A stretch of DNA of 63,895 nucleotides, the filler included, from Cladosporium halotolerans (lineage: Eukaryota): assembly GCF_011745625.1 (NCBI RefSeq). It is 26 parts of 26 records of this genome, joined end to end, with 100 filler letters (N's around TTAATTAATTAA, not from the genome) between each part and the next. Parts side by side here need not be neighbours in the genome. Positions count along the whole stretch, not along the records: positions 5,445 to 8,028 come from NW_027191761.1; positions 8,129 to 10,678 come from NW_027191762.1; 24 more parts are not named here. One strand, given 5' to 3'. The translations under genes were made by a program, and so were the position numbers. Below, in pieces: positions 2,726-63,895 of this stretch. Each line of letters starts with the position of its first letter. The stretch's first letter is position 1. Under the pieces are notes generated by a model. That model had not been told where the DNA came from. It searched no databases and worked only from the letters and a program-made list of their open reading frames with translations.

Positions 2726-5344
2726 CAGAGAGTACACCGACAGTCCATTATGTTCATTATGTTCATTACGTCATGTCATGTTCATCATTCCGACATGATA
2801 TGAACATGGATGTCTGGGAATGAACATGTTCATTATGTCCAAATGCATTGAGTATGATCTGCGTCGCAAGTTGTCTCCCGTCTCATCAACGTGCACCGCT
2901 CCAGCTAGAACGCTTCTAGAAGCATGGGGTAGACAAGCGAGCCAATCGGAGCTTTCCCTACCTCCGCCTCCTGACCTTGTCACAACCGAGACACCTTCGG
3001 ACCCTGGTGCCAGACGCTCAGCCACTGCGATGGCAGCATCAAGCTTGTCTGACGATGAGGCCAGCGGCACCAGCTCACGCAAGAGAAAACTCGGTCGGAA
3101 CCTCAACCCGCTTCTTTGGGAGCACTCGCGCAAGCCCGTGCAGGGCATCGAGCCGACGAGGAATGCGGCTGGAAGGAGGATTTGGTACTGCTCGCGTGTA
3201 GGTTGCGAGGATTATTCTGTAGTCAGCGCTGCAGGCATCCGTTGGCACTTGGAACGGCATCATGGCCTCGTACTCGGTGAAGTCGAGCCAGGCGCCATCA
3301 AGAAGGCCAAGCAGCAAGACCTGACGACTATGTTTGGAGAACAGAAACTTGTCAAAGATCAGCAAGCAGAGTCCGAACTTCGTGATCTCTTGAGGAGCAT
3401 CGCAGACAAGGATCGCATTCAGCAGGCCGTCCTACGACTGATCGTTCGTCGAGACCTTCCTCTCCGGCTACCCTGCTGGCCAGAGATGAACACACTTCTA
3501 CATGCCGCGAACTACATGGCCACGTCGTCTCTGTGGGACTCTCCGACAACAACGGCCAATCATGTCAAACGAACGTTCGAGGCGAGGCGTATAGAGCTTG
3601 CGGAACATCTCCGCCGAAGCAGGAGTAAAATTCACCTGACCACCGATACCTGGCACTCGCCGAACCGCAAGCAATTGCAGGCTATCACTGCGCACTGGTT
3701 GCGTGACGATGGATCAGCTTGCAAAGCGTTACTTTCGCTCACAGAGATGCCGGACGGGCACGCTGGGCTCCTTGTCGCCGCAGAAGTGATCCGTGTGCTG
3801 GATCTTTATGGTATCAGGAAAATGCTCGGATACACAACGACTGATAATGCTACATGCAACGATACCATGTGCCGCGCCCTTTCGGATTCCCTTGGCTCAG
3901 ATTGGGATGCTACGGAAGGGAGACTGCGCTGCGCTGGTCATATCATCAACCTGCCGATGCAAGCATTTCTGTTTGCGAAAGACAAAGAGGCTGTCGAGGA
4001 AGCATTGCGACAGGCTGACCTGCGTGGAAGCGAGGTCGACGAAGAGATTGCAGTGTTGTCACGCCGTGGCACAGAGGGCGGCTGGATTACTGTGAGTCCA
4101 CATCAGAAAGTGCATGCTTTCGGAGTCTACCTACGCAAGTCGGATAGGCTGTTCCAAGACTTCAAGCGTCTTGCTGGACGATCCTTGCACCAGCCAAACG
4201 ACACAAGGTGGCACAGTTGGTTCGACGAGTTCGAAGGTGCTTATCGACTACGTGACTCTTACAGCCAGCTCATCCACAATAACCCGAACGATTTGGCCGA
4301 CTTCGAGCTCTCCACAAGAGAATGGGACCTCGTCAAGATCACGATCGACATCCTCGTACCGTTCAAGATCGCTTGTAAGAAGTTGGAGGGTGATGAAGTG
4401 ACGTTAGACGCCGTCCAGGAAACCATGGACTTTCTTGCCACGCACCTGGGCGAATGCAAGGACAAATACCGCAGCAATCCGGAGCTTCTCCAGAGTCTGA
4501 TGACATGCTGGTACGCCTTCGACAAGTACTACAAGCTCATCGATCAGTCCGCGGCCTACGTAACCGCGATCCTGTTGCACCCTAACAAGCGGAAAAATTA
4601 TCTCACCGCGGCATGGAAGCAGAGGTGGGTCCAGGAGGGCATACAACGTGCTAAAGCACTGTGGTACAGACGCCTCGACCATCATAATGCCGAAGTGATG
4701 GCCGTGAACGACGAGCTAAGGCCTGAAGCCCTGGATCTGGACCCTTTCGCTCGTTGGCAATTGTCGATCCAAAGAAAGCAACAGAGTAAAGGTGCAGGTC
4801 TTTTGGACGAATTCGAGCGCTTCATTGCAGCAGCGCCTGACACTTTGGACTTTACAGCAAAGTCGGTGGTCCAGTGGTGGATCCAGCCTTCGCAGCAGGA
4901 AGCTTATCCGCTGCTTTCACAGCACGCTCTCGACGTGCTCAGTGCACCCTCGATGAGCGCAGAGTCGGAACGTGTGTTTAGTGGCGCAAGACGTACTATC
5001 TCGTGGTCTCGGACGCAGCTAAGTTCGCCGATTATCGAGGCTTTAGAATGCCTCAAGCATTGGCAGGTCACCGGTGTGGTCGAGGACGACTTCGTGATCC
5101 GAATTCCTGAAACTGAAGAATCCCAGTTGGCAGAGAAGGACTCCAGTACTTAGATCTCAGTTTTAGTACCAGGGAAACACAGAATAGCATTGGAATCAGG
5201 CGTCCTCCGATCACACCAACATAATGCCAAGACTTTCTCCTTTCACTGCACATGACGCGACATGAATATGAACATAGATTTTTCCCACTGCACATGACAT
5301 GAACATGGCAAAATTATTGGACATGACTGTCGGTGTACTCTCTG
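2726..5344 (+). mobile_element. Complete hAT DNA transposon
   Basis: Perfect 20-bp TIRs CAGAGAGTACACCGACAGTC (2726-2745, 5325-5344); CATGTTCAT-type subterminal repeats; the contig is exactly the element. Confidence 0.95.
2820..5153 (+). CDS. hAT transposase (intact; true start may be downstream)
   Basis: BED-like finger WYCSRVGC...HLERHH; TTDTW, TTDNA, RCAGH, TRW; C-terminal SAESERVFS. Confidence 0.95.
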   Translation: MNMFIMSKCIEYDLRRKLSPVSSTCTAPARTLLEAWGRQASQSELSLPPPPDLVTTETPSDPGARRSATAMAASSLSDDEASGTSSRKRKLGRNLNPLLWEHSRKPVQGIEPTRNAAGRRIWYCSRVGCEDYSVVSAAGIRWHLERHHGLVLGEVEPGAIKKAKQQDLTTMFGEQKLVKDQQAESELRDLLRSIADKDRIQQAVLRLIVRRDLPLRLPCWPEMNTLLHAANYMATSSLWDSPTTTANHVKRTFEARRIELAEHLRRSRSKIHLTTDTWHSPNRKQLQAITAHWLRDDGSACKALLSLTEMPDGHAGLLVAAEVIRVLDLYGIRKMLGYTTTDNATCNDTMCRALSDSLGSDWDATEGRLRCAGHIINLPMQAFLFAKDKEAVEEALRQADLRGSEVDEEIAVLSRRGTEGGWITVSPHQKVHAFGVYLRKSDRLFQDFKRLAGRSLHQPNDTRWHSWFDEFEGAYRLRDSYSQLIHNNPNDLADFELSTREWDLVKITIDILVPFKIACKKLEGDEVTLDAVQETMDFLATHLGECKDKYRSNPELLQSLMTCWYAFDKYYKLIDQSAAYVTAILLHPNKRKNYLTAAWKQRWVQEGIQRAKALWYRRLDHHNAEVMAVNDELRPEALDLDPFARWQLSIQRKQQSKGAGLLDEFERFIAAAPDTLDFTAKSVVQWWIQPSQQEAYPLLSQHALDVLSAPSMSAESERVFSGARRTISWSRTQLSSPIIEALECLKHWQVTGVVEDDFVIRIPETEESQLAEKDSST

Positions 5345-5444
5345 NNNNNNNNNNNNNNNNNNNNNNNNNNNNNNNNNNNNNNNNNNNNTTAATTAATTAA
5401 NNNNNNNNNNNNNNNNNNNNNNNNNNNNNNNNNNNNNNNNNNNN

Positions 5445-7537
5445 AGGTAGCGATGGATGATCTTCGTGTTTCCAGTGGTACTGTAACCCTTATGATAAGT
5501 CGTCACTGTGCTGACCATACCGCCCTCGATGAAGACGTTTCGATGATGGCCGTTCACAGTGTTGATATGTCGTAGACTCAATATCTCGCTGCCACGCGCT
5601 GGTTGGCCTGCAGTCAGATGTATGAGCAGAAGTAGTCGCTCGAGAAATGCATCCACTAAGACGAGGTAGTCTTGACAGACTTTCTGGTTCCATGTGGGTT
5701 CTGTTACTATGCTTTCTGGGCGTATGAATTCTTCTTGAAGCCATGGACTCTCGAGTATCCTCTTGAGTAGCCACATCTCCCGGTCTGGCAGCGCACTTTG
5801 GAGGTTCTGAGGATGCCGTAGGAAGCTCCATCCCTTTTGGTTTTCGGTTGGGTCGTCGACGACACGATGGATCCAGAACCGAATGTCTAAGTCTTCGCGC
5901 GTCTCCTGAGGATGAAGCAGTAGAAGCTTCTCGAGCTGAGCCTGTGCCTTCTCTAGCTGATCGCGAACAAAGTCTCGCAGTGCACTCATGTCTAGGTGAC
6001 GTACACCTTTGTAAGAGACTGAGAGACCATCATCTGACCAGGAAATGTACCCTAGACATGTCGTTGAATCGCGCACTTTCTTCCCATACACCCGTAGCTG
6101 ACTAGCCCAGCTAAATGGCGACCGCACTCCGTTGATTAAGAATCGCATTCGCATTTCGTCAAGAAGGTCGGCAGGCTGTATGCTTTCCACGTCTCTTGCG
6201 CCTACTACAGCTTTCTGGATCACCAGCATCTGTGCTATCTTTATGAAGCCAGATAGAGTAGGTGTGAAGTGGTAAGCTTCCTTGAGGATCCCCTTTACAG
6301 GATCGATAGCAATTGCCGCTAGAAACCCAACAACGGCGCTCTCGAAGAGGTCGCCTTTCAAGTCGTGATCTAGCAAAGAGACACAAAGCTCGAGGCAGTC
6401 CGTGTCCAGAGCGTCGCACGATTGTTCCATAGCGGATGTAGTTTCTTCTCCGAATGTTTCATCGCATGAAGACAGTTGAGCTAACTCTTCGCCTTTAGCA
6501 ACTATCTTGTACAGATTGGCTGTTTGTCTGCTTGTAAGCTGATGTCGTAGTAAGACCTTCTGGTCTGGCTGTGCCGTTCGATAAACAAAACAAAGAAGTG
6601 CCTTCCAGATCCTTGTGTAATGGCGCCATGTCGACTTTTGTAGCTTTACCAACAGCGGGCGATCAGTAGCACTCGGTCGCTGTAGAAAGCTGTTGATCCG
6701 GACTTGATCAAAGACGTTGATGCTGTCGTTGCAGACAGATTGGTATGCATCTTCGACCACACGCTCGAGGCTGTTGCATATAGAAAGCAGCACTGGCTCA
6801 GTAGCTGCATCTGGCTGTCTCACTAACGCAGCGACATCGAGCAGACAATGGCCGTGTAGGTATGAAAGCCATCGGGTCAGTTGCAACCAAGGAGAAGTCT
6901 CCTTTTCACTTGTTTCCTCGCTTGCTATGTTGCCTCGCTTTTCCTGGTCTTGCTCAATAGTAGCAAGGTCCTGTAACACCGAGGCAGCTATCGAGTCCGG
7001 ATGCGCGACTTGCCGTCGAGGGTCACTATCCTCGGGTCGCCTCTCCGAAAGCACTGTGAAGTAGCTTGTGTGGCGTCCTGTGTGGAAAAAGCGCTGACAA
7101 CGAACAGGCTTCCATGCATCCGCCTGCTTCTGGAGAAAAACATGAAGTGACGCCGCTGCCCTGGACCCGCCCCTTCTCCCAGTCGCGGTCCACTTGTGTA
7201 CTGTTCGCCAATGCTTCTTCAGACTGTCCATCGAGCGGCAGACAAAGGTGCATTGCTCCGGGTCCAGTTCACATTGCTTCCCGTCCTGGAACAAGCGTAA
7301 GCCCTGTACGGGCTGATCGACAGCCTGTGGGATTTCGAAGTGTTCGTGCGAGTGAGAAACTCCCTGCCAGGCTTGCAGTTCCTCGCATATAAGTGCCCTC
7401 TCCGCTTTTGGCAGCCTGCTATGCTTTTCTCTGAGGTGGGTACGAGCGTTGTCTGGCCAAACACAATAGTGACAGATCTTGCATAGTACGACACGATACT
7501 TTGGTAAGCATGTGAAGTAGTCTGAAGCGCTAGACAT
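5445..7537 (-). CDS. DUF3505/OrsD + C2H2 zinc-finger protein, N-terminal part of a telomere-linked RecQ-helicase-like family; 3' truncated by contig end
   Basis: N-terminal YRVVLCKICHYCV..HLREKH; C2H2 with HWRTVH; VRCQRFF; SPWLQLTRW; GQPARGSEILSLRHIN. Confidence 0.75.
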
Positions 7538-10068
7538 CTCTCGGAAAGTCGTATCAGGACACTCGTCAGAACCGGTGGAAATGAATCGTGGAAGGCGAGA
7601 TATAACAAAGATCTAAGGTGAAGACGCAGGAAACGTACATCCCTTGTACTCACTGTCTGCATCTTCTCTACGCGTAGATGGCGCGTACTTCGCGCATTGC
7701 TCACGCGCTCCTAATATATCTGTTACAGCCTTTATATGAAAGACTATAACTCAAGCAGGGCTGGAAATACATAGCGAGCGGGAACAGCGGACAGCGCCGG
7801 GCGGGAGGCCAGGGGAGGAGAGAACTTCAAAACATAGAGGCACGGTACAGAACGACATTGACGAAGAGACAGATAGCGGACGTGTTTCAAGAGAGATAGG
7901 CACATAGTGCATACAAAAGACGAGGAGGAGGACTGATAGAAGCGTTTGGTACGTGTTTCGGGCGGAGAGGCGCAGAAAGTGGAGTCGAGTCGTTTGAAGA
8001 GTCGAGTTGTTTGGTTATACTACTTAGGNNNNNNNNNNNNNNNNNNNNNNNNNNNNNNNNNNNNNNNNNNNNTTAATTAATTAANNNNNNNNNNNNNNNN
8101 NNNNNNNNNNNNNNNNNNNNNNNNNNNNTTGAGAAGTGGCTGGATCGTGCGCTTTGCAATGCACGTGGAGATCAATCGTACGCCGTAGCTGCCATTGCCC
8201 TCGATCTTGGTGTCTCGTCGGCTCTCGATCGACATGCCTGTTGGCCTCCCGGAGGAATCGCTGGGAGAACAGAAGAGACTGTAGGTGGGTGTGAACGATC
8301 ATCGAATGGTCTCTACATTACATACTCGTTGTCTAAGACTGACGTTCCCATGCAGGTGGCTTTCAGTTGCAGAAAACACAAGTCATGCTCAAAGCTGTTG
8401 CAGCTCTCCGGAATTACTCCCTAGATGGGTATTACATTTCCCCCGAGTGTAGTGAAGGCCACCTAAGGCTTTGGAAGGCGGAATTTGAGCGTCGCGGGTT
8501 GTGGCCAATGGAATGGGCAGTTCAGAATTACACCTTGAGCGGCCTTCTGGAGGTCCTGGAGAATCTCAGCACACCTTCGTCGATACACGAGTGTGGCTGC
8601 AGAGGTTTAACCCCGAGCTTCCTCAGAATCTTCGTGATGCCGTTTGCAAGACGCTCGACCAATTTTAGGCCGCTTGAACACATGTTGCTGGACCCTTAAG
8701 CAGCAGCAACTGGATTCGGTGTCTCGGCGGGGCATACTTCGTCCGCATACTTCGTCCGCATAGTGTAGGAACATCTTTTACCGACAGGTCTTGGTCGCAA
8801 GTTTAGAGCATACCACGTAAATACCCGGGAAGTCGTCGTTCAGGCGCGGGATGCAGCGGTTGCAGATGGGAACGGTAGCGCGAGGATCTCGCGCCACCAT
8901 GGCGGCGAGCAGGTGAGTCGCAGGTTGAAAGGTGTTGGTGACGATAGGTGGTGATTTCGGCTGAGGCAGCGATGTAAATCATGTGTGTTGGGCGAAGGTC
9001 GAAGGTGACGAGCAAGAGCGCAGGTTGACAAAAGAGCTGCTTCCACTTAAATTACATGCTCCTCGCACTTCGAGCGCATGTGATACGCATGTTACGCTCA
9101 CGGCAACCGCCGCATGCACCTGATTGGGCAAGTGGTGCAGGCGCGGTGCTTGGCGGCCATGTGCGTGTAACCTGCGGAGCGCAGGCGTGTCGCATGGATA
9201 TCACAATATCAGCTGGTCTTGACATGGCCCGCGGTACAACTGGCTAACGCTGCGAAATCGGCATCCTCCCGCACGTCTACTGTAGCTCTCGTGATATCAG
9301 ATAACGTTTCTGTACGGGACTTCAAGCTCGTTTACTGCTGCTTTCCAGCTCTGTCCCCAGGGACAAAACTTTCCTAAATTTATGTCCCCAAGAACAGAAG
9401 TTTTGCGCTGTCCACCGATCTGCCAGCGAGCCAGCTATCTCTTGCAGCGCCGAAAGCCCCTCTGGATGTCCGCGCTCCGAGGTCGAGATGTCGCCATTGT
9501 CCCAGGACTCGGCCGCGGCGGACTTGTAAAGCAAGGTGCTGACTTGGGGGTCTTGTTGTCTGGCAAGAACGTCCTTCCTTCTCCCGGTAGCTCCCGCGGA
9601 TGATCTTTTCTGACCCAAGCACCTCCGACAGATCGACTCAATCAGAGCGATCAGACGGCAATCTAGGATGGTAACGTTTACGGGCGCTGCGGGTAACAAG
9701 CCGAGCGACCTCTTCCCCTCGTCGAAAGCGGCGCACAAGTCCCGCCGCACAGCTTCGTCAGACGATTTGTGCAGATGGAAGTGAAGGGCGGCTGGCGCGC
9801 CGCCAATGCAAGAAGAGGGTGAGTGCTGGACATCTAGATGCTGCCAGAGAGTGTAGGCATGATCGGTGAGCAGACCCGTCGGTCCATTGTCCATCAGGGA
9901 GAGCCTCGTGTCGGTGACTCGCCCAGACTTGACGAAGCAATGATCCACGGTGAGAAAGCTTCCTGAACACGGCCTTGGTAGAGAGACGGATTGCAGTGAA
10001 TCGAACTCGGAAGCTCAAGGGTGGCGAATCCATGCGAGCGGGCAAAGTGGAAGGAACCGTCAAATGCG

Positions 10069-15958: not shown

Positions 15959-17761
15959 AGAGCAATTACACGAGTTTGGAGCCACATCCTCGGACAAGAC
16001 GTTCTCCCACAGCAACTTGATGAATCGACTGTTCTGGCACTGCAGATGCTATGTCCGTCGTACTCGTCGCATGACTGCGACACCATAACTAAGCTATTCG
16101 CCGACAACAAGGTTTTTCCCTTCATTCGAGATGTTAGTCAACGGAACATGATCTGCAGACGGGTCATCAGTTGCAAGCGGATCCTGACGTTGGATACATT
16201 TTTCAGCGACTTCATCTACCTTCGAGCCTGTTTTGACGGCCTGAAGATACTTACGCCCTCTGACTGGAGGACCTGCAAATTGAGCTTTGAGCAAGTCTGT
16301 AGACAAAGCTGGGGATCGAAAGCGATAGGGAACGGCGATGCGTATTCGTCGACCAGCGATTCTAGGATGCCCAGCGGTAACTTTAGAGACTGCTACATCG
16401 ACTTATGGCTCTTTGCCATGAGAGAATTTCCGTATCTCTCGGAAGGTAAAGCAAGTAGGCCTTTACAAGACGGCACACCAGCCGACGTCGAATGTTGGTA
16501 TAAAGGCACTGTATCAGCGAAACAAGTCCAGCTGGCCTCGACAGCTTTTGCGCTCGGATTTGAGACCGACAAGATCAAGAGGACCAAAGCCGGTCATGCG
16601 ACAAGCATAATCGAACCAGGACGAATATCGCAGGCGCCAGAGCTCAGTTGCCACGATCGCCCTTTGAAACGGAAAGCCAGAAGGAACAGGCCCTTGAGCT
16701 CGAATTATGCTAGGGACAAAGACTTCCTGCACAGACGGTATATCTTTGATACGTCAAGTTTTGAGCGGAAGTCTCAAGCAACGTCCTTCGCCATTGCAAA
16801 AGATTTGGTCCATTGTTGCTGGGGATCTGGTCTAGAACAACAGGAACGCGATCCAAAATCAAGCCATCAAACACAACGCCAGAAGAAGCGTCCGGGCAAA
16901 GCTCCGTTCAGGGCAGGCCAAAAAAACAGATGGAATCCTCACGGGCGACCGGAAACGCGAAAGCTAGACTCGCCAAGCTATAACAGCTTAGTTCCTCCTA
17001 ATCCCTTCTCGACCGTGGATGGAGATATTGACGAGCCAAGTGAGGCAGCGTTGTTGCCGGAAAAAGCTGTGCAAGAAGAGGACTTCTCTATCAAGGCAGA
17101 ACACGACTCACCGTCCAATGTTCTCAAAACTATTAGGGATTTAATGGACACGAAAGGGTCACCATCGGCATATTCTGCCGATGGAGTGGTCTCCGTCAAG
17201 GCAGAATCCGACACACGGTCCAATATCTCGGAAAGCATCAGGGACATAAGAAGCTTACCCTCGAGACATTCTGCGAATAAGATGGAAGAAAAGTTACCCT
17301 CTGGACGAACATCGACGAAAGACTTGTCTATGCACTCCCGTCCCGCCCCATCCGGTACAACTTCTCGATCGAGCTCCATGGGCTGGATGAGAGAAGGAGG
17401 AGATAGTGATTCCAGAGAAGTTGATGATGCTGCTAGAAGGTCTGACTTGATACATCCAGCGGTCGAGAGCAGCCTTTTGAATGATGCGAGAAGATCTCCT
17501 GTCCGCCAGATTGGTGAAGGCGCCGTTGTACGAAAGAGGAAAAGGTCGATTCAAGATGGCACGGCGCAAGTAGCAAACATGGCGGTCCGTGGTGTCGAAG
17601 ACATAAGACGTGCCTCAGTTTGGCCACCGAACCCTCCGCGCACGCACTCTTCGCCGCAGAAACAGAGCAGAGTGCGGAAGCTTGACATCTTGCGAATGAG
17701 AAAAGAAAAAGAGAAAGCAAGAAAGAGAGAGACTAACAGGCAGGCGACAGCTTCAGTCTGA
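15959..17761 (+). CDS. DUF3723 protein (Starship-associated), 5' truncated, with a low-complexity tail
   Basis: Frame open from the contig start: VWSHILG..LDESTVLALQMLCP; ILTLDTFFSDFIYL; YIDLWLFAMREFP; LASTAFALGFET. Confidence 0.75.
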   Translation, partial: RAITRVWSHILGQDVLPQQLDESTVLALQMLCPSYSSHDCDTITKLFADNKVFPFIRDVSQRNMICRRVISCKRILTLDTFFSDFIYLRACFDGLKILTPSDWRTCKLSFEQVCRQSWGSKAIGNGDAYSSTSDSRMPSGNFRDCYIDLWLFAMREFPYLSEGKASRPLQDGTPADVECWYKGTVSAKQVQLASTAFALGFETDKIKRTKAGHATSIIEPGRISQAPELSCHDRPLKRKARRNRPLSSNYARDKDFLHRRYIFDTSSFERKSQATSFAIAKDLVHCCWGSGLEQQERDPKSSHQTQRQKKRPGKAPFRAGQKNRWNPHGRPETRKLDSPSYNSLVPPNPFSTVDGDIDEPSEAALLPEKAVQEEDFSIKAEHDSPSNVLKTIRDLMDTKGSPSAYSADGVVSVKAESDTRSNISESIRDIRSLPSRHSANKMEEKLPSGRTSTKDLSMHSRPAPSGTTSRSSSMGWMREGGDSDSREVDDAARRSDLIHPAVESSLLNDARRSPVRQIGEGAVVRKRKRSIQDGTAQVANMAVRGVEDIRRASVWPPNPPRTHSSPQKQSRVRKLDILRMRKEKEKARKRETNRQATASV

Positions 17762-61749: not shown

Positions 61750-63895
61750 TAGACGTCTTCCCTGGCTCGTGCACATCCCTGACTCGTGCACACTTTGGAA
61801 GCTCGACAACAACGCGCTTCAACACGCGATATCTTCCTAACCATGGCTTCCATCGATAAGGCAGTCGCGTTTTTGAAATCCTCTGAATCTGAAAATATAT
61901 CTGAAGCAGCGAGAAAATACAATGTCAATAGGAGTACCCTTAGCAAGCGGTTTCGCGGCAAGACGCGCTCTACAACCCATGGATACCAAACACAGCAATT
62001 ACTTACGCGCAAACAAGAACTTATGCTCGTTAAACAGATTAACAAACTATCCGAGTGGTGCCTTCCACCTACACCATCAATGGTAAGGGCATGGGCTGCT
62101 GCTTTATGTGGTACAGAGCCCGGCAAGAACTGGGCTGGCGCTTTCAGAGTCCGACACAAGGATGAACTTGACTGCAAATATCTCAGCACCATAGACCTCG
62201 AGAGGCATAAATCCGACTCGGAGCATTCCTATAGGCAGTACTTTGCTGTTCTGAGGGGAAAAATCGTCCAATACAATATACAGCCTCACAATTGCTACAA
62301 CATGGACGAGAAGGGCTTTCTCATCGGCCATTTGCAAAAGGTCAAGAGGATCTTCCCGAAAGCTCTTATGAAAACCCAGAAGCTTCTAGGCACTGGCCAA
62401 GATGGAGCTCGACACTGGATTACCCTTATAGCAACCATATGTGCCGATGGCAGCTCACTGCCGCCTGCTCTGATCTACAAGGCTGTTAGTGGTAATCTTC
62501 AAGACACTTGGCTGCAAGACTACAGGCCGGAAGAGCACCCTTGTTGGTTTGCAAGCTCGCCCAATGGATGGACAAGCAACGAGCTTGCTTTGAGCTGGTT
62601 ACAGAGCCTCTTCGATCCTCAGACCTCAGACAAGGCTAAACGAGACTGGAGGCTGCTCATGCTCGATGGTCATGGCTCGCATTGCACTCTGGACTTCCTT
62701 GAGTGGTGTCACAAGCTCAGGATCTTGGTTGCCATCTACCCTCCTCACTCGACTCATAGGTTGCAGCCCTTGGATGTCAGTCTGTTCAACCCACTCGCCA
62801 CCTATTACAGCCAAGCTCTAGATGCTCATACCAGACAGTCTCTAGGCCTATCGAGCGTAAGTAAGCGAGACTTCTTCACCATCTTCTACCCAGCGTTTGA
62901 CAAGGCCTTCACGGAGGAGAACATCCGGTCGGCATGGCGCAAGACCGGCATTGAGCCATGGGAGCCAGCTCAGGTGCTAAAGATCTTCGACAAGGGGGCA
63001 GGCGAAGCATTGGACGATTCATCAGCGTCCGCGCCCTCCGAGAGCCTCAGAAGTAGTTGCCTCGATTCGCCGAGAGCCAGTAGAAGCGTAAGGAGGATTG
63101 TGGATCGAAGTGTGGCTGCTGATGGTGCTAGGAAGGACCGGACGATCAGACTGCTCGGCGATGCCTATTTAGGGGCTTCTGCTCGAGCAGAACTGGCAGA
63201 AGCGCGTGAGAAAGGCCTTCTTAAGTCCATCGACACTGAGAAGAAGAAGAGGAAACGTGGTAGCGCATTCACCGAGCAGCTCAGGGCAGACGAAGGTCTT
63301 GGTGTGCTGTTCTTTAGCTCTTCTAAGGTAGCCCAAGCTAGAGAGCTTGCAGCAGCTCAGGAGTTCGCTAAAGATGACGAAGCACTTGATCGATTGCTCC
63401 AAGCTCAAGACAGAGCTCAGCTCAAGGCTCACAGGGAGCTAGAGGCTCAGCAGAAGCGTGAGGACCGAGCTATCAAAGCTGCCGCAAGGAAGACCAAGAA
63501 GGCTCTTGAGAAGGCCCAAAGGGAGCGTGAAAAGCTTGCCAGGAAAGCTCAAAAACAGCTTCAGACAAAGTCCTCAGCCTTTAGTAAACGGCCAAGAGGA
63601 AGGCCGCCGAAGCAGAAACAGTCCAAAGAACCTGTTGCAGTCACTACCGAGCCAGAAGCTGAAGTAGTGCCAGAACAGCCGAGGTCAAGAACTGGCAGGG
63701 CTGTCAAGCGAACAAAGTTTTTTGATGATATCTAAGTATATAGAATTATAGAGATAGCTATCACGGCTGCAATGAGCTATTTTGTACTTCGAACGGATGT
63801 GTTTACGTCAAGATGTAATAGTGCGAAGGTGATGGTCACGACGCGAAAGCAGTGTGCACGAGCCAGGGATGTGCACGAGTCAGGGAAGACTTCTA
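61750..63895 (+). mobile_element. Complete pogo/Fot1 DNA transposon
   Basis: 43-bp imperfect TIRs (61752-61794, 63851-63893) bounded by TA; the contig is exactly the element. Confidence 0.95.
61843..63735 (+). CDS. pogo/Fot1 DDE_1 transposase (intact)
   Basis: HTH; YNMDEKGF; LDGHGSH; LQPLDVS; basic tail with AT-hook-like RPRGRPPK. Confidence 0.95.
   Translation: MASIDKAVAFLKSSESENISEAARKYNVNRSTLSKRFRGKTRSTTHGYQTQQLLTRKQELMLVKQINKLSEWCLPPTPSMVRAWAAALCGTEPGKNWAGAFRVRHKDELDCKYLSTIDLERHKSDSEHSYRQYFAVLRGKIVQYNIQPHNCYNMDEKGFLIGHLQKVKRIFPKALMKTQKLLGTGQDGARHWITLIATICADGSSLPPALIYKAVSGNLQDTWLQDYRPEEHPCWFASSPNGWTSNELALSWLQSLFDPQTSDKAKRDWRLLMLDGHGSHCTLDFLEWCHKLRILVAIYPPHSTHRLQPLDVSLFNPLATYYSQALDAHTRQSLGLSSVSKRDFFTIFYPAFDKAFTEENIRSAWRKTGIEPWEPAQVLKIFDKGAGEALDDSSASAPSESLRSSCLDSPRASRSVRRIVDRSVAADGARKDRTIRLLGDAYLGASARAELAEAREKGLLKSIDTEKKKRKRGSAFTEQLRADEGLGVLFFSSSKVAQARELAAAQEFAKDDEALDRLLQAQDRAQLKAHRELEAQQKREDRAIKAAARKTKKALEKAQREREKLARKAQKQLQTKSSAFSKRPRGRPPKQKQSKEPVAVTTEPEAEVVPEQPRSRTGRAVKRTKFFDDI

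Follow-up and report, generated by a model that had tools for sequence, protein, structure and literature searches.

The third contig of the window appears to carry the 5′ part of a single mobile-element copy that looks intact; the element is dispersed and multicopy in the Pezizomycotina and encodes a protein predicted to have a tyrosine-recombinase-type fold. The window, a stretch of 63,895 nucleotides from Cladosporium halotolerans, comprises 26 small contigs (2146–2625 bp) joined through N...TTAATTAATTAA...N spacers; contig 3 contains a terminus, a leader and the first 697 of ~881 codons of a single gene (Table 1).

Table 1. Features of the element copy on contig 3, in positions of the window.
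Feature	Position	Strand	Remarks
Contig 3	5445-8028	(-)	5′ 2.58 kb of one element copy
Conserved 5′ terminal 57 nt	7972..8028	(-)	gene orientation nCTAAGTAGTATAACCAAA...CACTTTCTGC
Direct repeat 2, GAGTCGAGTTGTTTG	7999..8013	(+)	GAGTCGA core 7999-8005 invariant in 14 copies; rest varies
Direct repeat 1, GAGTCGAGTCGTTTG	7982..7996	(+)	GAGTCGA core 7982-7988 invariant in 14 copies
Leader and presumed promoter	7538..7971	(-)	between terminal region and ATG
Open reading frame, 697 codons, no stop	5446..7537	(-)	cut by contig end
OrsD (PF12013) region, two C2H2-type motifs	7193..7519	(-)	residues 7-115, E 1.4e-24
Predicted recombinase-fold domain, first third	5447..5680	(-)	residues 620-697; R648 5594-5596; K683 5489-5491

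The uninterrupted ORF of about 700 codons described in an earlier, sequence-only reading of this DNA is present as 697 codons on the minus strand; it begins at an ATG at 7537 and exits the contig at 5446/5447 still open, its C-terminal part reading ...LLIHLTAGQPARGSEILSLRHIN...TTYHKGYSTTGNTKIIHRY. The window protein is 93% identical, gap-free and across all 697 residues, to an 881-residue form, of which 184 codons (the C-terminal part) are absent from contig 3. From the N-terminus onward the protein comprises an OrsD region, an extended conserved central part and, at the C-terminus, a domain of ~240 residues; the OrsD region, whose two C2H2 motifs are visible in the window protein itself, is a putative DNA-binding region. 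The leader is alignable among copies, with conservation below that of the terminus.

Homology among copies starts at the 57-nt end, beyond which the flanks differ. Columns 10–57 have a mean identity of 0.93, compared with 0.835 for columns 58–151, and the direct repeats sit within these best-conserved 48 nt of the element end. That two 15-nt direct repeats lie here, as had been pointed out, is well beyond chance (two matches against 0.01 expected, with none of 100 shuffles reaching two); they are candidate binding sites, as the earlier reading proposed. Contig 3 finishes ...GGTTATACTACTTAGG (...CTTAGG), 491 nt upstream of the ATG. Because its final G is variously C, G, T or A (gene orientation) in 14 copies, only CTTAG counts as the conserved end, and the ‘TTAGG’ end proposed earlier fails at its last base. 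The terminal DNA has no hairpin (z 0.28).

The upstream flanks are mutually unrelated right up to window position 8028 in 13 distinct metagenome loci; the contig end is therefore a true element terminus. In 13 of 31 loci (11 distinct places, as two pairs each represent one place twice) and in the window, the terminus was seen in a single orientation, always at the 5′ end, and the boundary shared by the homologs is sharp to a single nucleotide, which bears out the proposal that 8028 is a real end common to a multicopy element. The flanks contain unrelated fungal genes and other transposons, and copies sit inside or beside other transposons.

Overlaps between contigs of the window are frequent (96–98 nt, 96–100% identity; five pairs exact), and the assembly was presumably of the de Bruijn-graph type, from which repeats emerge as separate contigs. 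Contigs 2 and 26 had likewise been said to stop at element ends, and both have inverted ends around a transposase: contig 2 starts CAGAGAGTACACCGACAGTC and finishes with its exact reverse complement, with a hAT transposase between, and contig 26 has inverted ends of 45 nt (93%) flanking a DDE_1 transposase. In the probable source run, a k=31 contig likewise stops at 8028, and diverged short gene pieces are also present.

The C-terminal domain is predicted to have the fold of tyrosine recombinases and type IB topoisomerases. An AF2 model was made of the domain of a relative (P0305, 91% identical to P0005); it has a mean pLDDT of 77.7 and a pTM of 0.74, with helices and a three-stranded sheet predicted after the first Arg. 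In a Foldseek search of the PDB, all rows listed belong to the DNA breaking-rejoining superfamily (best E 3.1e-3, prob 1.00; no match reaching E ≤ 1e-3), and all named BFVD matches are integrases, Tyr-recombinase-domain proteins or topoisomerases. The named ESM Atlas neighbours, which serve as leads only, all belong to the recombinase superfamily (scores 0.81–0.86), with DUF3435 a weak language-model neighbour (0.85). The structural check by AlphaFold and Foldseek suggested with the sequence-only reading thus came out in favour of a tyrosine-recombinase fold.

Attempts to establish the recombinase link by sequence methods alone were negative throughout. Pfam at E ≤ 10 gave no recombinase match (PF00589 and related) for 10 family proteins, PDB profiles gave none, and integrase matches numbered 0/49 in PHROGs and 0/25 in NCBIfam. 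The hhalign targets were a single Cre, a single lambda Int, the lambda-Int family (120 fetched), the XerD family (81) and a merged profile; against the lambda-Int and Xer families the probability was <1% (a lambda versus Xer control gave 89%), the score of 16.5 equalled the shuffled mean (16.1 ± 3.3), and the lambda profile mapped 0/6 catalytic residues.

The greedy hhalign alignment to XerD places its R148, K172, R247, H270 and Y279 on R410, K445, R534, H567 and Y576 (P0005 numbering), each conserved at 0.99 or above and colinear with XerD. None of 150 column shuffles reached three such catalytic-column matches, and the eight conserved identical pairs observed were reached by 1 of 140 shuffles. 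The R-K-R-H-Y pentad is intact in 150 of the 153 family domains, and the two residues picked out earlier (R of GQPARGSE and K of YHKG) are members of it. Of the five, the window includes only R648 and K683 (R772, H805 and Y814 lie past the contig end); the contig portion of the domain also holds E651, R666 and R696. The stretch of the model with H218 and Y227 has a pLDDT below 50, so their placement is taken from the sequence alignment only. The H-x-x-R motif looked for at the earlier reading's suggestion lacks its H, the column being S/Q/A/R/P/L and never mainly H, and the second histidine (His II) of the recombinase hexad is accordingly absent from the family domains. This five-residue set distinguishes the window domain from Xer and Cre, as do insertions of ~10 residues in the R–K and R–H intervals; to Xer/Cre and to type IB topoisomerases alike it has no detectable sequence-profile similarity. 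Such a set, lacking the HxxR histidine, is characteristic of type IB topoisomerases.

The fungal family to which the protein belongs is very large, with 12,587 representatives when the cut-off is E ≤ 1e-3 and 2,184 when it is 1e-30; those records bearing a name are mostly called ‘hypothetical protein’, and about half of the family carries a RecQ helicase, the layout of telomere-linked helicases (TLHs). The suggestion of a ‘YR-plus-helicase’ element does not apply to the window lineage: the full-length protein, of 881–893 residues, has no helicase and belongs to a helicase-less clade (64 rows, of which 62 lack a long C-terminal tail; SH-aLRT 86), and no helicase match was obtained on any of the window's contigs. 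A helicase-bearing relative, P0002 (1567 residues; OrsD, DEAD and Helicase_C), covers 99% of the query with an E of 7.7e-81, and the C-terminal domain is homologous to one directly before DEAD/Helicase_C in P0002, P0003 and P0004. By its sequence, the element's protein looks like a relative of the TLHs that has no helicase of its own.

In the literature consulted, which includes 10.1101/2024.02.27.582403, TLH genes are described at chromosome ends in several fungi and in one choanoflagellate, as subtelomeric families of undetermined function with a TLH domain of unknown function; examples are M. oryzae TLH1, S. pombe tlh1/2, F. oxysporum TLH and U. maydis UTASa. From the architecture described for TLHs, we infer that the predicted recombinase-fold domain probably corresponds to this ‘TLH domain’. 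The window protein and TLHs have in common two C2H2 motifs at the N-terminus (OrsD) and, probably, a conserved domain of ~250 residues, which is followed immediately by the RecQ helicase in those relatives that carry one, and P0002 and the window protein fall in one HMMER family. The window clade differs from TLHs in having no RecQ helicase, and 12/13 of its loci have no telomere nearby. TLH names were found for none of the cluster records looked up, and no paper calling the TLH domain a recombinase was found in the literature searched.

The copies bear the marks of a transposon lineage. Four loci show strong RIP-type change, namely L017 (173 versus 34), L007 (39 versus 5), L011 and L021; in-frame stops occur in 19/28 copies, with none in the 697 codons of the window copy, and dN/dS between the window copy and 12 others is 0.08–0.31. 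Purifying selection between dispersed copies, many of them now dead, is the pattern of a transposon lineage.

Searches of L005, L010 and L011 did not reveal the 3′ end of the element. An inverted candidate, TACTTAGG at L010 3759, lies inside a hAT insertion (3632-6287, with 22-nt inverted repeats) and was discarded, and an inverted match of 11 nt in L005 is no better than chance (E 1.6). The departure of L011 from L005 and L010, 270 nt past the stop, is followed by unrelated sequence opening with a short inverted repeat and was read as an insertion. The copies examined yielded neither a 3′ end nor a target-site pattern, and likewise no empty site, no circle junction and no new insertion; self-mobility and catalysis are accordingly inferred.

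The failure to find a 3′ end, target-site pattern or empty site, together with the description of TLH genes as subtelomeric families of undetermined function, would fit a non-mobile host or domesticated family of the TLH kind, which spreads through ectopic recombination and through segmental duplication and in which the recombinase-fold domain has another role (for example in chromosome-end repair) or is inactive. We regard this as unlikely, given a boundary sharp to a single nucleotide between unrelated flanks in 13 loci, a conserved 57-nt end, copies lodged among unrelated genes and inside or beside other transposons, and selection acting between dispersed copies of which many are dead. The assembler, moreover, isolated the element in the same way as the adjacent hAT and pogo elements, and the catalytic set is kept in 150/153 domains, unlike in DUF3504, which the part of PMC3212892 consulted reports to be without most catalytic residues.

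The sequence-only reading had the element recombine at TTAGGG, with the terminal TTAGG as crossover core or telomere start. In gene orientation the terminus indeed reads nCTAAG, CCTAA being five-sixths of the C-strand telomere unit, and CTAA is kept in 10/14 copies; a nested helicase-type relative in L002 also has CCTAACC at its left junction, and CCCTAA repeats stand at the contig start of L002/L029, 7.5 kb from the element. Related systems are associated with telomere repeats, TLH-containing regions of F. oxysporum having them on both sides and in arrays (as excerpted from bioRxiv 10.1101/2024.02.27.582403) and subtelomeric repeat families of C. higginsianum combining helicase, DUF3505 and TTAGGG motifs (PMC5576322, in part). 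We nevertheless judge this mode of insertion improbable for the window element: a match of 4–5 nt to the telomere unit is weak evidence, the base preceding CTAA varies, such that the full TTAGG is not conserved, and a telomere repeat adjoins the terminus in 0/13 distinct flanks. Nor does TTAGGG follow 8028 in the probable source run, where the k=31 contig ends without a TTAGGG run (a contig entering a telomere tract would presumably carry up to k-1 bases of it), and metagenome contigs past 8027 continue into differing, non-telomeric sequence (3 contigs, agreement 0.51). Telomere targeting by the window element is not supported.

The preferred reading, of a mobile element with a recombinase-fold protein, invites comparison with two known groups, from both of which the element had been held to be distinct; this agrees with the Pfam searches, in which 10 family proteins at E ≤ 10 gave no match to DUF3435 (Starship captain) or GCR1_C (fungal CryptonF). 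Cryptons are tyrosine-recombinase-only DNA transposons (Goodwin 2003; Kojima and Jurka 2011, PMC3212892), with 5–6 bp terminal direct repeats or a matching target and, in fungal CryptonF, a GCR1_C domain. Like them, the window element is compact in the part seen: its 5′ 3.6 kb hold a single gene of recombinase type and no reverse transcriptase, and its 5′ end, the one seen, bears neither an inverted nor a long terminal repeat; a circular intermediate is proposed for both. It differs in having an N-terminal OrsD zinc-finger region in place of GCR1_C, a C-terminal recombinase domain too divergent for any profile, and no second histidine. With Starships it shares a fungal host, RIP, ends defined by termini rather than by target duplications, and a 5′ recombinase gene reading inward, the position that PMC10104507, as far as excerpted, gives for captains; it differs in showing no cargo and copies that look small, besides the missing DUF3435 match.

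A DUF3723 ORF is present on contig 7 of the window. We take DUF3723 to be a Starship accessory family. It is very doubtful that the gene serves as ‘captain’ to a Starship-like element that carries cargo and far exceeds the ~4 kb assumed here, for although this ORF, the inward 5′ position (as described for captains in PMC10104507), a relic second recombinase-like fragment after the gene and the failure to find a 3′ end within at least 1 kb past the window contig's end (~0.5 kb past the stop) would all suit it, there is no DUF3435 match, and the observed copies, short and interrupted by other insertions, showed no shared cargo downstream.

The architecture suggests how a mobile element of this kind might move. 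Its 57-nt terminus, with two TCGACTC-core repeats, is followed by ~490 nt and then by a single inward gene of ~881 codons, the product of which would bind the element end via its zinc fingers and/or the recombinase domain, and would cut and rejoin DNA via a 3′-phosphotyrosine link at Y814. Movement would be by conservative site-specific recombination, probably via an excised circle, as proposed for Cryptons (PMC3212892) and reported for Starships (PMC10104507) in the excerpts of these sources consulted. Such movement would leave neither long terminal repeats nor a target-site duplication.

The recombinase fold predicted for the C-terminal domain hints at how a large family spreads. If the TLH domain is a breaking-rejoining enzyme, as the predicted fold and the conserved R-K-R-H-Y set indicate, how TLH genes and their relatives without a helicase spread becomes a matter of site-specific recombination. 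More than 12,000 sequence clusters would then form another fungal lineage of DNA elements driven by a recombinase, the third after Cryptons and Starships, a status that would bear on repeat annotation and on subtelomere dynamics. More tentatively, it is possible that the ‘TLH domain’ which thousands of fungal OrsD proteins share acts as an enzyme of recombinase or topoisomerase-IB type, and that the whole family, including the classical TLHs of S. pombe, Magnaporthe, Fusarium and Ustilago, forms one large, unrecognised superfamily of recombinase-driven mobile elements. Were this so, members with a helicase would lodge at chromosome ends via site-specific recombination with telomere repeats, which would account for their telomere-repeat-flanked units and tandem arrays, and helicase-less lineages such as that of the window would have become ordinary interstitial transposons.

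The minus-strand gene on contig 3 holds to the description of the sequence-only reading, which had an uninterrupted frame of about 700 codons: it is free of stops from its ATG to the contig edge (Table). The sole Pfam domain of the predicted protein is OrsD (PF12013, formerly DUF3505; residues 7–115, E 1.4e-24). An 881-aa cluster-mate, P0343, matches all 697 residues without gaps at 93% identity, and the last 184 codons are therefore missing from the window; a k=31 contig of the probable source run extends 688 nt beyond 5445. Relatives of similar length (73 proteins at E ≤ 1e-3) include 840–920 aa forms from Hortaea, Cladosporium, Aspergillus, Penicillium, Talaromyces and other Pezizomycotina, which again carry OrsD as their only Pfam domain. 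Three longer relatives (1369–1605 aa) passed, all with DEAD and Helicase_C and two also with OrsD; one of them is named a RecQ-type helicase / C2H2 zinc-finger protein by one source. Searched with a profile, 1.84 billion representatives yielded 12,587 proteins at E ≤ 1e-3, 7,187 at 1e-10 and 2,184 at 1e-30, some of the weaker matches possibly resting on the zinc-finger part or the helicase start alone. A tree built from 153 C-terminal domains places the window lineage within a 64-row group (SH-aLRT 86), 62 rows of which stop no more than 110 residues past the domain, and all 69 long-tailed rows fall outside it; a PHROGs scan, run separately on 49 diverse family members, matched a DNA-helicase family in 24. 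The proposal of a combined recombinase-plus-helicase element does not fit this placement among short-tailed rows, nor the OrsD-only architecture of the 840–920 aa forms.

One scan of JGI metagenome contigs gave 31 loci with relatives of the gene (64–96% identical at the protein level over their best-aligned segment). In the 15 with upstream DNA, representing 13 distinct loci (L002 is the same as L029, and L013 as L024), the alignment to the window starts no more than 10 nt from 8028, and no more than 2 nt from it in 8 of the 13. Since the query itself ends at 8028, the flanks are the real test of a boundary, and the upstream 1.5 kb of the loci has nothing in common except in the two duplicate pairs and in a small repeat. 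Because these flanks are unrelated, we take 8028 to be the true terminus of a multicopy element, as had been proposed from the window. The small repeat (~90–210 nt, 76–90% identical over most matches), itself unrelated, lies upstream of the element in L002, L012, L015 and L023, at differing distances in these four distinct flanks (five loci, as L029 repeats L002).

Contig 3 ends in ...ACTACTTAGG, just as first noted, and both of the direct repeats described close to this end were recovered. Read in gene orientation the terminus is nCTAAGTAGTATAACCAAA..., with a variable first base; its columns 10–57 are conserved at 0.93 vs 0.835 in the following 94 columns, and its two TCGACTC cores lie 17 nt apart and do not vary among 14 copies. 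Thirteen loci, besides the window, carry the terminus at the 5′ end and always the same way round; inverted copies are absent from every locus. Summed contig depth, a weak measure, reached 4462 in the last bin (window 7968–8028) vs 273–776 in one metagenome, 91 vs 0–28 in another run and 90.7 vs 72.4 in the probable source; some contigs match the window rightwards only, from 7976/7980. The terminal 50 nt may be common to other, possibly non-autonomous, elements.

Recombination at TTAGGG had also been proposed. The terminus starts with CTAA, the left junction of a helicase-type relative nested in L002 (...CATCC / TAACCAAT) likewise reads CCTAACC, and published regions containing telomere-linked helicase (TLH) genes have, in the available text of bioRxiv 10.1101/2024.02.27.582403, telomere repeats on both sides. 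Telomere-repeat targeting by the element is nevertheless unlikely: no TTAGGG/CCCTAA adjoins the terminus in any of the 13 distinct flanks upstream, and only L002/L029 has CCCTAA repeats, 7.5 kb upstream, where its contig begins. The k=31 contig of the probable source run stops at 8028, just as the window contig does, without a telomeric run; such an end would fit a repeat with flanking sequences that differ beyond 8028 and would not fit entry into a telomere tract.

A tyrosine-recombinase-like C-terminal domain was the remaining proposal, and structure prediction supports it. The 290-aa domain of P0305 (91% identical to P0005, which is 96% identical to the window protein) was modelled with AlphaFold2 (mean pLDDT 77.7, pTM 0.74) as helices, a three-stranded sheet directly after the first Arg helix, and further helices. 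Foldseek against the PDB gave a best E of 3.1e-3 and no match at E ≤ 1e-3; among the matches listed, all belong to the tyrosine-recombinase/topoisomerase superfamily. Named matches listed from BFVD were integrases, Tyr-recombinase-domain proteins and topoisomerases, the exceptions being three uncharacterised virus proteins. Cre 151–316 aligns on model residues 37–206, which brings R173 and R292 of Cre close to R61 and R185 of the model, respectively, and the structure-aligned ranges and the sequence mapping are concordant for both arginines. The R-K-R-H-Y set is complete in 150/153 domains (long-tailed 68/69, short-tailed 75/77, intermediate 7/7). The column for the first His of HxxR holds S/Q/A/R/P/L in the family; a five-residue set lacking that His is typical of type IB topoisomerases.

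No recombinase family was found by Pfam at E ≤ 10 in 10 family proteins or by PDB profile searches, and integrase matches numbered 0/49 in PHROGs and 0/25 in NCBIfam. Alignment of the 153-sequence domain alignment by hhalign with the lambda-Int family, the XerD family (81 sequences) and a merged profile gave Prob <1%, the score against Xer being 16.5 and that of 150 column shuffles 16.1 ± 3.3 (mean); in the control, the lambda and Xer profiles recovered each other (Prob 89%, E 2e-6). We consider such methods uninformative, either way, on the identity of the domain. In a greedy hhalign alignment with Xer, XerD R148, K172, R247, H270 and Y279 fall, colinearly, on the same residue in family columns conserved at 0.99–1.00; three or more such matches arose in 0/150 shuffles. 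Conserved identical pairs total eight with E151, R177 and P180, a number reached in 1/140 shuffles; the lambda profile did not reproduce the catalytic mapping (0/6 residues). The nearest named clusters among language-model neighbours, all superfamily members, are Phage_integrase, DUF3435, NDC10_II, ResT/TelK and DUF3504, at scores of 0.81–0.86, and therefore serve as leads only. With the predicted structure as the decisive line, beside the colinear residues and these neighbours, we assign the domain a tyrosine-recombinase fold.

Table. Features of the window and of related metagenome loci (L002, L005, L010); residues are numbered on the 881-aa form
Feature	Position	Details
Open frame, 697 codons	ATG at 7537 (contig 3)	minus strand; no stop, runs off contig
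Two 15-nt direct repeats	7982–7996 and 7999–8013	2 matches vs 0.01 expected; 2 in 0/100 shuffles
Recombinase-domain residues within window	R648, E651, R666, K683, R696	
Recombinase-domain residues past contig end	R772, H805, Y814	
Complete hAT element, 2619 bp	2726–5344 (contig 2)	20-nt perfect terminal inverted repeats CAGAGAGTACACCGACAGTC; contig limits are exactly the repeats
pogo/Tc5-type DDE_1 transposon	61750–63895 (contig 26)	45-nt inverted ends, 93%; 650-aa ORF
pogo/Tc5-type DDE_1 copy related to contig 26	13380–15857 (contig 6)	68% identity over 794 nt
Helicase-type family member nested in copy of window element	L002 9717–14511	OrsD, recombinase-fold domain and RecQ helicase; 27% identity with window protein
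327-codon open frame with distant-family fragment	L010 2654–3490 (also L005 from ~2530)	GGQPVRESE ... YHNG ... WRQITVAIV

The genes surrounding copies of the element are unrelated (HET, NACHT-WD40, Zn-cluster factor, kinases), and hAT and pogo elements interrupt or adjoin these copies. C>T/G>A changes exceed the reverse, mostly at CpA, in L017 (173 vs 34), L007 (39 vs 5), L011 (16 vs 2) and L021 (7 vs 2), and are balanced in the window copy (27 vs 26). In-frame stops occur in 19/28 copies (three duplicate loci left out) and in none of the 697 window codons; dN/dS between the window and 12 copies is 0.08–0.31. In a leaf-litter metagenome, 674 contigs match contig 3 at ≥90% identity, with C>T/G>A again in excess, and short, diverged pieces of the gene are present in the probable source run. 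The 3′ end of the element was not found in L005, L010 or L011, where similarity continues for at least 0.8–1.0 kb beyond the window's cut. Past the stop codon, these three loci hold part of another, distantly related family member (28–33% identity), reaching from the first Arg as far as the second; the copy in L010, present also in L005 (Table), is co-amplified with the element, has Asn for the hairpin Lys and lacks the His/Tyr part. Beyond this fragment, a hAT element breaks L010 and another insertion breaks L011.

The window's 26 contigs (2146–2625 bp) are sorted by length and do not form one genome stretch; the spacers read N...TTAATTAATTAA...N. End overlaps of 96–98 nt (identity 96–100%) recur in many contigs and are exact in five pairs, from which we infer that the contigs are unitigs of a short-read assembly graph; no other window contig overlaps contig 3. 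Several contigs are complete transposons ending exactly at their own inverted repeats, including contigs 2 and 26, for which this had been observed; the contig 2 transposase is an intact 777-aa ORF with a Dimer_Tnp_hAT domain. Contig 7 holds, at 15959–17758, an open frame of 600 aa that matches DUF3723 (E 1.2e-35), a Starship accessory gene family; the window contains no captain gene. The first 2 kb of contig 1 (1–2625) has ~30% G+C vs 43–55% in the rest of the window, and may be a RIP-degraded repeat or organellar.

The available text of bioRxiv 10.1101/2024.02.27.582403 describes TLH proteins as carrying two C2H2 motifs at the N terminus, followed by a conserved ~250-aa region and a RecQ helicase, the function of the ‘TLH domain’ being not known. 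From architecture, with TLH proteins compared by description only, we infer that the C-terminal recombinase-fold domain corresponds to this ‘TLH domain’. The window element belongs with TLH proteins by family, but is without their helicase and their telomeric position. It would work like a Crypton, or like a very small Starship; it is assigned to neither because GCR1_C and DUF3435 are both absent (Pfam at E ≤ 10, 10 family proteins), in agreement with its earlier separation from Crypton and Starship captains.

The element has a discrete, conserved 5′ end, many dispersed and partly RIP-mutated copies and a gene under purifying selection, and its protein, as modelled, adopts a recombinase fold whose catalytic set is conserved. 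The protein would recognise the element end, the invariant TCGACTC pair standing out as a candidate target of its zinc fingers or its recombinase domain, and would move the element by conservative recombination via a phosphotyrosine intermediate, probably involving a circle. Conservative recombination via a circle has been proposed for Cryptons (in the available text of PMC3212892) and, in accounts available in part, reported for Starships. In the openly available literature searched, no paper joined ‘telomere-linked helicase’ with ‘tyrosine recombinase’, and the titles, abstracts and passages covered nowhere present the TLH domain, or proteins with OrsD, as recombinases. Should the recombinase finding hold for classical TLH genes as well, its interest would be wide.
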